Of a DNA stretch of 64,000 nt, positions 17,869-18,306 are shown piece after piece. Position numbers and translations under genes: made by a program. Where the stretch lies: the NCBI GenBank assembly GCA_044892525.1, contig CM097886.1:93000001-93064000 (forward strand), given 5' to 3'. The DNA is from Schmidtea polychroa. Taxonomy: Eukaryota. The notes beneath the pieces are model-generated. The model was not told the DNA's origin, ran no database searches, and saw only the letters and a program-made list of their open reading frames with translations. How positions within the stretch are numbered: position 1 is the first letter of the stretch; every line of letters begins with the position of its first letter.

Positions 17869-18306
17869 TTAGAAATCGACCAATGAATTTAACTCATTCC
17901 GAACATTGTTAACAAATTCCCTATAGTCTAATTTTCTCAACCCAAGCATGACAACCTTTCCACTTGAAAACACATTGACACATATAGGGTTATATTTTAA
18001 TAGTCTTAGTGCCGGAAACAATTCCGGTTCAAACATACAATCACATTTTCTCGATATTTTGTATAAATTGATAGTATGTCCCATATCCATAGTAACGGTA
18101 ATTGATTGAATTTTAATATTATTGATTCGATATTGTAATTTATTAATATCCAATGGTTCCTTACATCCCATAATTCTGCATTTGCCAGTCTTGAAAAATA
18201 TTATCTGATATTTCCCGCTTCTATCGACAATTTGCTGTGGTTTTCCTGGTGGGAACCTCATTTTTGAAATATCAAAATTTCCTCGATAATTTATATTTGC
18301 AAGCAT
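17869..18306 (-). CDS. TATA-binding protein (TBP)-like protein, 145 aa
   Basis: Two TBP repeats: IIFFKTGKCRIMGCK and KIQSIT...FEPELFPALRL...VNVFSSGKVVMLGLR, compared with canonical YEPELFPGLIYR...LIFVSGKVVLTGAK. Confidence 0.88.
   Translation of the reverse strand: MLANINYRGNFDISKMRFPPGKPQQIVDRSGKYQIIFFKTGKCRIMGCKEPLDINKLQYRINNIKIQSITVTMDMGHTINLYKISRKCDCMFEPELFPALRLLKYNPICVNVFSSGKVVMLGLRKLDYREFVNNVRNELNSLVDF

Follow-up and report, generated by a model that had tools for sequence, protein, structure and literature searches.

Beta- and gammaherpesviruses encode TATA-binding protein (TBP) mimics, among them KSHV ORF24, EBV BcRF1 and HCMV UL87, which serve late promoters built on the motif TATTWAA (PMC12529657). 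ORF24 is described as a large, multi-domain protein that belongs to a six-protein complex, binds RNA polymerase II (Pol II) directly and is without the acidic residues that engage TFIIB (PMC12529657). Giant viruses (Nucleocytoviricota) also encode TBPs, in which the N-lobe has diverged and the acidic residues vary, about 40% being kept, and nearly all of these viruses are reported to encode a TFIIB of their own (PMC7221094). In cellular TBP, TFIIB contacts two C-lobe glutamates, and TFIIA, TAF1, Brf1/2, Mot1 and NC2 sit on the N-lobe, where helix H2 bears a basic patch (PMC7221094). The DNA in cellular complexes is kinked between bases 1 and 2 and between bases 7 and 8 (PMC10005294).

Adintoviruses, Mavericks and Polintons have been described with terminal inverted repeats (TIRs), a DNA polymerase B (PolB), an integrase, an ATPase, capsid and protease genes and a Bcl-2 accessory gene (Starrett et al. 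2021, PMC8502044), and the element reported here resembles them in each of these. The legend of Figure 5 in that paper gives the label 'TBP', without characterisation, to a gene of a MELD virus or related element; the available parts of the paper describe no family, structure, promoter box or mechanism for it (PMC8502044). Planarian Polintons have been reported as piRNA targets (PMC8532177), and the accessible text of a further study (10.64898/2026.06.19.733378) makes no mention of a TBP. We found no description of the TBP family or promoter box reported below in the literature consulted, mostly open papers whose figures and slides may bear on the point. A first reading of the locus from its letters (the sequence-only reading) had stated that no characterised TBP was known in a Polinton; no characterisation came to light in these sources, but with the 2021 legend a 'TBP' label on one related element was already in print.

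The TBP gene and the Polinton that carries it

The window, a stretch of 64,000 nucleotides of Schmidtea polychroa DNA, carries on its reverse strand at 17869-18306 an open reading frame of 145 aa, here called mini-TBP, which matches the Pfam TBP family (PF00352) in two stretches with 60.2 bits against a cut-off of 22.9. An AlphaFold model built from 59 sequences (pLDDT 94.1, pTM 0.82) was superposed by VIA on human TBP over 143 residues with Z 12.6 and an rmsd of 2.5 Å, the next unrelated row, and unrelated folds generally, reaching at most Z 6.2. All 44 of the Foldseek matches shown at E<=0.001 were TBP chains, and the ESM Atlas returned only TBP clusters. By these models the gene encodes a full two-lobed TBP saddle fold. 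The sequence-only reading had described an intact frame with two TBP repeats, the second with FEPELFP and VFSSGK and the first without YxPxxF, that diverges from a packaging ATPase gene across a gap of about 108 bp. Each of these points was confirmed, the ATPase starting head to head with mini-TBP at 18415 on the forward strand, 108 bp away, and the structure prediction that the reading had proposed gave the TBP saddle, whose absence it had named as grounds against its view.

The gene lies in a Polinton of 15.8 kb (13521-29326) with AG..CT ends, long TIRs and the same 6-bp target duplication, CATGGG, at either side, as expected of Polinton/Maverick termini. Its hallmark genes are an rve integrase, a PolB recognised by similarity, a Pox_A32 ATPase and a capsid gene recognised through a profile link. 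The features are as follows.

13515-13520: left target-site duplication CATGGG, identical 6 bases at both element ends
13521-14360: left TIR, starting AGTAG and rich in TGACTCA; inverted arms 99% alike
14946-15446, reverse strand: ORF166, accessory gene, predicted coiled coil, behind TATA and CCAAT
15556-16077, forward strand: Bcl-2-like accessory gene, behind TATA and CCAAT; weak Pfam Bcl-2 match (E 0.004, exon 1), end approximate
16688-17095, reverse strand: ORF135, conserved companion of mini-TBP, present in 20 of 81 related loci
17869-18306, reverse strand: mini-TBP gene, 145 aa, no stop, identified by Pfam TBP, AlphaFold, Foldseek and VIA
18333-18341, reverse strand: canonical TATA box TATATAAAG, 35 nt upstream of the TBP start
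18376-18382, forward strand: ATAAACA box, 39 nt upstream of the ATPase start
18415-19038, forward strand: A32-like packaging ATPase (Pfam Pox_A32, 28.7 bits, cut-off 22.8)
19025-19031, forward strand: ATAAACA box, 35 nt upstream of ORF153
19060-19521, forward strand: ORF153, conserved basic core gene
19548-19554, forward strand: ATAAACA box, 59 nt upstream of the integrase start
19607-19975, forward strand: retroviral-type integrase, of which this copy has just the N-terminal part (Pfam rve, 32.7 bits)
20589-20936, reverse strand: GIY-YIG fragment (Pfam GIY-YIG), within a segment standing in place of the end of the integrase and of the putative minor capsid gene
21154-21497, forward strand: small basic gene, virion-core-like as judged from its position, start lost in this copy
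21453-21459, forward strand: ATAAACA box, 41 nt upstream of the major capsid start and within the upstream coding frame
21494-22720, forward strand: putative major capsid protein; no Pfam match of its own, its profile matching a Pfam DJR protein (E 3e-6)
22776-23135, forward strand: protease frame, which from its motifs we take to be an adenain-type cysteine protease
24325-27849, forward strand: protein-primed PolB, frame ending early in this copy
28390-29326: right TIR, ending CTACT
29327-29332: right target-site duplication CATGGG

This copy is defective, integrase and PolB both being broken. The match of the integrase region to sister copies ends at 19976, and the following 19977-21153, which matches none of them, is a shorter and partly unread (N) segment with the GIY-YIG fragment; it stands where the sisters have the end of the integrase, the putative minor capsid gene and the beginning of the gene after it. 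Sister copies have a 348-aa frame without Pfam match at the expected place of that minor capsid gene. The PolB is 29% identical over 1001 aa to a Pfam DNA_pol_B_2 protein and measures 1302 aa in a sister copy.

Among the accessory genes, ORF135 had no match in Pfam or the ESM Atlas, and the Bcl-2-like gene apparently has one intron (GT..AG, the second exon read from the sequence) and ends in a hydrophobic tail; its CCAAT/TATA region is divergent and shared with ORF166. A broken, probably spliced small gene lies downstream of the TBP gene at 17441-17885, a region with three CCAAT boxes in and just beyond the TBP 3' end. A small conserved frame overlaps the integrase start (from 19555 onward, and at two further loci) and uses the same box as the integrase; it begins with MG and has a Cys pair, presumably like a lipid-anchored virion protein. 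TGACTCA occurs 7 times in the left TIR (840 bp) and 12 times in the right, and TGACGTCA 0 and 6 times, with none in the 13.5 kb leftward; these words, which we take to be AP-1/CRE-like, make a stress- or wound-responsive early enhancer possible. Next to the element, 31197-31571 and 33636-33905 are pieces of another, older Polinton polymerase gene.

Anatomy and descent of mini-TBP

Compared with cellular TBP (PF00352; PDB 7egb_P, 1ytb, 1mp9), mini-TBP keeps the saddle over its whole length, three intercalating phenylalanines, the first-repeat asparagine and the EPE stirrup of the C-lobe. It differs in being about 30 residues shorter, all of them from the N-lobe (H1, H2 and stirrup), in an identity of 23-26%, in the replacement of one phenylalanine by proline, in a fixed polar DNA face and in its separate branch in the tree. 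Conservation was scored over 164 mini-TBP relatives. Where canonical TBP has four intercalating phenylalanines, three are kept (F38 in 96%, F97 in 99%, F113 in 99%) and the fourth, at the first N-lobe position, is proline (P23, 93%, in a register taken from strand order). The claim that the DNA-contacting Asn and Thr residues are changed therefore holds for the second Asn and both Thr, which are replaced, and fails for the first-repeat Asn, retained as N4 in 85% of the relatives.

Hydrophobic or small residues of the DNA face have given way to N6, R44, M46, S68, T70, R101, C109 and N111, new residues that are fixed across the family (R44 97%, M46 99%, N111 99%, R101 76%, C109 79%). R101, C109 and N111 align to I194, V203 and L205 of yeast TBP, in a numbering that we assume from the alignment. 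I194, V203 and L205 are the positions of the altered-specificity mutant TBPm3 (PMC1636458). A DNA face that is both changed and fixed argues for a protein that binds DNA with a shifted preference.

The C-lobe is complete in the AlphaFold model, and its acidic pair is kept in nearly all of the 164 relatives (E93 in 94%, E95 in 99%). The N-lobe of the window's subgroup lacks helix H1, the stirrup and the long helix H2 in the model; the alignment has a 13-residue gap there, and no helix is modelled between strands 48 and 62. More distant family members keep an H2-like N-lobe segment in their sequences, so the loss of the helix is graded. The sequence-only reading had offered a decoy for TFIIA, TFIIB or NC2 as one role; a sink for TFIIB is taken up further below. 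A decoy for the other two, here widened to the N-lobe and convex-face regulators TFIIA, NC2, Mot1 and TAF1, would be in keeping with the preserved overall fold and with the N-lobe helix of the distant members, but the regulators share the basic H2 patch (PMC7221094), and H2 is deleted in this subgroup, leaving mini-TBP without the patch used by TFIIA, TAF1, Mot1 and Brf. We therefore disfavour this role and regard it as very unlikely.

Giant-virus TBPs resemble mini-TBP in being virus-encoded and in their diverged N-lobe (PMC7221094), and structural matches to them were present in BFVD. Mini-TBP departs from them in that its acids are 94-99% kept and in that 93 element sources, a large share of them partial, yielded no TFIIB gene (best E 1.8), a search in which a very distant cyclin fold could be missed.

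A search of the genome with mini-TBP gave 4172 candidates. The best 150 of these are 90-100% identical to it, and 143 of the 150 have no internal stop, a count biased toward intact copies. Other subfamilies in the same genome are 52-59% identical and have an identical gene order. Outside this genome, 68 of 73 candidates were mini-TBP relatives, none of the 68 coming from NCBI or UniRef, and a profile search at E<=1e-30 returned 60 representatives of clusters. The metagenomes gave 176 matches, 80 of which we retained. A Polinton hallmark gene lies beside the TBP gene in 38 of these 80 loci (26 of the 36 that reach at least 3 kb), and a hallmark or recurring companion gene in 63; 15 of the 17 loci with neither are shorter than 2.1 kb.

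A tree of 44 rows, its root arbitrary, placed the 33 chosen family rows on one side of a branch with 100/100 support, and six host TBP paralogue fragments and four cellular-type TBPs on the other. The ratio dN/dS was 0.17-0.35 in 14 pairs between subfamilies and 0.06-0.42 in 62 metagenome pairs (chosen from 74 genes for identity above 65% and unsaturated silent sites), and it was lower still for the ATPase and capsid genes (0.03-0.13 between subfamilies). Judged from these ratios, about 0.06-0.42 overall, the mini-TBP family is under purifying selection. The sequence-only reading had named an ordinary host TBP or TRF gene with signs of decay as a finding that would speak against it. Between the window's gene and 29 sister copies there are 3 replacements and 0-2 silent changes, as in neutral drift after insertion and as a captured host copy in decay might have; at the level of the family, however, such a copy is refuted by the 33 rows beyond the 100/100 branch and by dN/dS well below 1 between lineages, and we give it next to no probability. 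By tree and substitution pattern, the mini-TBP gene marks a broad Polinton lineage with a branch of its own and is no decayed host copy.

Alongside a canonical TBP, the host genome itself has no fewer than five divergent paralogues, of which some are intronless. Modules appear to have been swapped between subfamilies: between 17869-19038 and its counterpart in another subfamily (locus L138), silent divergence is 0.21 for TBP and 1.0 for the neighbouring ATPase, and at two other loci (L140 and L141) the TBP-ATPase-integrase part of one subfamily is joined to the capsid of another.

A private box ahead of the core genes

Most core genes of TBP-bearing elements are preceded, in a single orientation, by a box (T/C)ATAAAC(A/G). 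Our first count covered 100-nt upstream windows from 87 sources, with proteins more than 80% identical collapsed; the elements are related, so that the counts are not independent. ATAAACA occurred in 94 of 127 core-gene windows in the sense and in 0 of 127 in the antisense direction, against a background of 4%, and it was the top de novo 7-mer of these windows. The preceding base was T in 59 cases, C in 27, G in 5 and A in 3. Distances to the start codon peak at -31 to -45 and range from -7 to -100, a spread due in part to the use of the first ATG as the start. Seven rows of this count were the small frame whose site is also that of the integrase. When that frame was left out and the protease taken in, counting ATAAAC(A/G) at -100..-20 again found the box at 94 of 127 core genes, 33 being without it: 11 of 16 ATPase, 14 of 17 integrase, 11 of 11 major capsid, 10 of 18 putative minor capsid and 3 of 7 protease genes. 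Outside the core genes it preceded 3 of 60 TBP, 1 of 10 PolB and 3 of 19 ORF135 genes.

The sequence-only reading had noted TATA- and CCAAT-like boxes ahead of several of the element's genes. This is right for the Bcl-2-like gene, ORF135 and ORF166, and for the TBP gene as to TATA only: TATA stands at -33 to -41 of all four and CCAAT ahead of all except TBP, and a canonical TATAWAWR precedes 26 of 81 TBP genes against 4.9 expected. It does not extend to the core genes, which use (T/C)ATAAAC(A/G).

The box lies in non-coding DNA as well as in two reading frames of upstream genes, and where it is in frame it uses the rare codon pair ATA-AAC, for which codon use predicts 0.09. ATAAACA occurs 36 times in the window against 32 expected; since the overall count is not raised, the signal is one of position. 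The sites in two frames and in non-coding DNA speak against the box as a by-product of conserved peptides. An origin as the poly(A) signal of the upstream gene can be weighed in the same way. TATAAA and CATAAA are minor poly(A) signals, and ahead of ORF153 the box stands 14-26 nt from the upstream stop. It is also found, however, with no same-strand gene upstream of it (at 4 of 4 ATPases that lie close and head to head, where a poly(A) role is thereby excluded, and in 3 of 5 ORF135 cases), and in most major capsid, core-protein and minor capsid cases it lies 36-114 nt inside the upstream frame. Poly(A) signal or peptide by-product, this account is highly improbable.

A host forkhead-type factor might read the box instead, its link with the TBP gene then reflecting common ancestry. 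The forkhead consensus RYAAAYA accommodates ATAAACA, and the host has 53 forkhead-gene matches. Set against this are the A that precedes 94 of 95 TAAACA windows, the mere two substitutions by ATAAATA, and the behaviour of a core promoter element, with 0 of 127 antisense occurrences and the peak at -31 to -45. A forkhead site is at least as doubtful as the regulator decoy considered above, and if anything slightly more so.

In the same genome an abundant Polinton family with a PLA2-integrase fusion and a DJR capsid served as a control; none of its 11 copies examined had a TBP-family match. The box stood at 1 of 85 of its gene starts, which were not de-duplicated and whose proteins go down to about 40-60% identity; three ATPase genes of this family have a box at -9, beyond the window counted, and no common word stood out in the upstream regions. 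As a host control we took 29 distinct gene starts from 47 histone and small heat-shock loci, of which 0 had the box and 10 a canonical TATA. Upstream of host H2A and H2B genes there is a common word, AATACCGCAACGTA, some 20 nt ahead of a TATA-like box. The core-gene box thus appears to track with the TBP gene; the TBP-less family compared is a single lineage whose capsid module differs, so that the contrast could be due to nothing more than kinship. Viral contigs, a phage collection and genome contigs yielded no TBP-less element that has the capsid module of the TBP-bearing ones. The viral-contig scan gave a TBP in 1 of 31 stretches, that one grouping with cellular TBPs, a capsid in 0 of 277 and three weak ATPase matches; the phage collection had no match to the capsid; and the genome contigs held two ATPase loci, one with a TBP and one too short to judge. 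By eye, no co-variation of the box variant with TBP residues was evident.

A proposed late-promoter switch

We think it probable, from the sequence comparisons, that mini-TBP is a late-promoter factor supplied by the element, which works on the box with the host's TFIIB and Pol II. Host TBP would drive the TBP gene and the accessory genes through their ordinary TATA boxes; the element's TBP would then bind the private box, some 31-45 nt upstream of the start codons of the core genes; its intact C-lobe glutamates are predicted to engage host TFIIB and so recruit Pol II; and loss of the N-lobe helix may free it from control by TFIIA, TAF1, Mot1 and Brf. The outcome would be an early-to-late switch, with the TBP gene early and the packaging, integrase and capsid genes late. 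We also lean, less firmly, towards the fuller reading of a private switch made of a single protein, a minimal TBP that would read its own late promoter, borrow TFIIB and Pol II, and shed the control surface for TFIID, TFIIA and Mot1. The 8 of 18 putative minor capsid genes and 4 of 7 protease genes without the box count against the late-factor reading.

The sequence-only reading had suggested that the protein may, with altered specificity, turn Pol II towards the promoters of the element. The rewired, conserved DNA face and the box that goes with the gene agree with this, although the likely targets are the packaging, integrase and capsid genes and not those behind TATA and CCAAT. The N-lobe of TBP holds the 3' half of the TATA box. 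The C of the private box is base 7, where mini-TBP has Pro for Phe and a fixed Arg, a fit that is suggestive only. For the TFIIB step, a complex of mini-TBP with a TFIIB 92% identical to the host exon was predicted at 0.41 against 0.00 for the best control, with 92% of contacts in agreement and pLDDT >=84. The mark applied was reached by 51 of 78 solved pairs and 2 of 108 mismatched pairs, and at <=0.60 only 5 solved pairs and all 4 passing mismatches were found. The model lends weak support to the complex, and it may be a memory of solved TBP-TFIIB structures.

The box could also be a weak form of TATA that host TBP, or one of its paralogues, reads, the element's TBP being employed otherwise, for instance as a sink for TFIIB that dampens host or early transcription. 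Cellular TBP tolerates such a box: PDB entry 1qn3 is titled as wild-type TBP on the C(-25) variant, and in a plant reporter TATAAACG is reported to have retained 27% activity (PMC10005294). Further, no surface is kept better than the TFIIB glutamates, and the at least five divergent host paralogues could read the box. A pure sink for TFIIB, however, needs no fixed and newly polar DNA face, and the C at position 7 is nearly invariant in the elements, yet the box is found at none of the host and only one of the TBP-less starts. This alternative we consider unlikely, while granting it more weight than the regulator decoy.

The late-factor reading finds a close parallel in the herpesvirus mimics, which by analogy have in common with it a viral TBP fold whose DNA face is polar, structural genes that stand behind a private TATA variant, and the use of host Pol II. 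Unlike ORF24 (PMC12529657), mini-TBP is a bare 145-aa core with its acids kept, in an element of 16-18 kb without such partners identified. Of the traits of a herpesvirus mimic it thus has the private TATA variant (94 of 127 core genes, in another word than TATTWAA) and has neither the large size nor the lost TFIIB acids. By analogy it would work like a herpesvirus late-promoter mimic, and it is not a member of that class.

If true, the one-protein switch would be smaller than any other viral late-transcription system known, would add a third design to the six-protein complex of herpesviruses and the TBP/TFIIB pair of giant viruses, and would be the first defined early/late programme for Polintons, bearing on the timing of their capsid and packaging genes and on whether they live as viruses. 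A defined factor with a target of 7-8 bases can be tested directly with a single small protein and a single oligonucleotide. A natural TBP that has shifted its specificity, kept its TFIIB contact and dropped its regulators would serve as a model of what Pol II initiation needs at the least, and also as a candidate for an orthogonal promoter system. Since candidate copies in the genome number in the thousands, chance box matches in host promoters could also be affected.

The nearest named relatives of the host's TFIIB come from flukes and tapeworms, which makes a flatworm host probable. The host genome further contains clusters of intronless TFIIB-like genes on two contigs (C3 at 38.2-39.1 Mb and C1 at 23.8-24.2 Mb); there are at least 13 of these genes, nearly identical to one another and 301 aa long. 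No Polinton genes were seen beside them in three 10-kb flanks, and they are about 35% identical to the main TFIIB.
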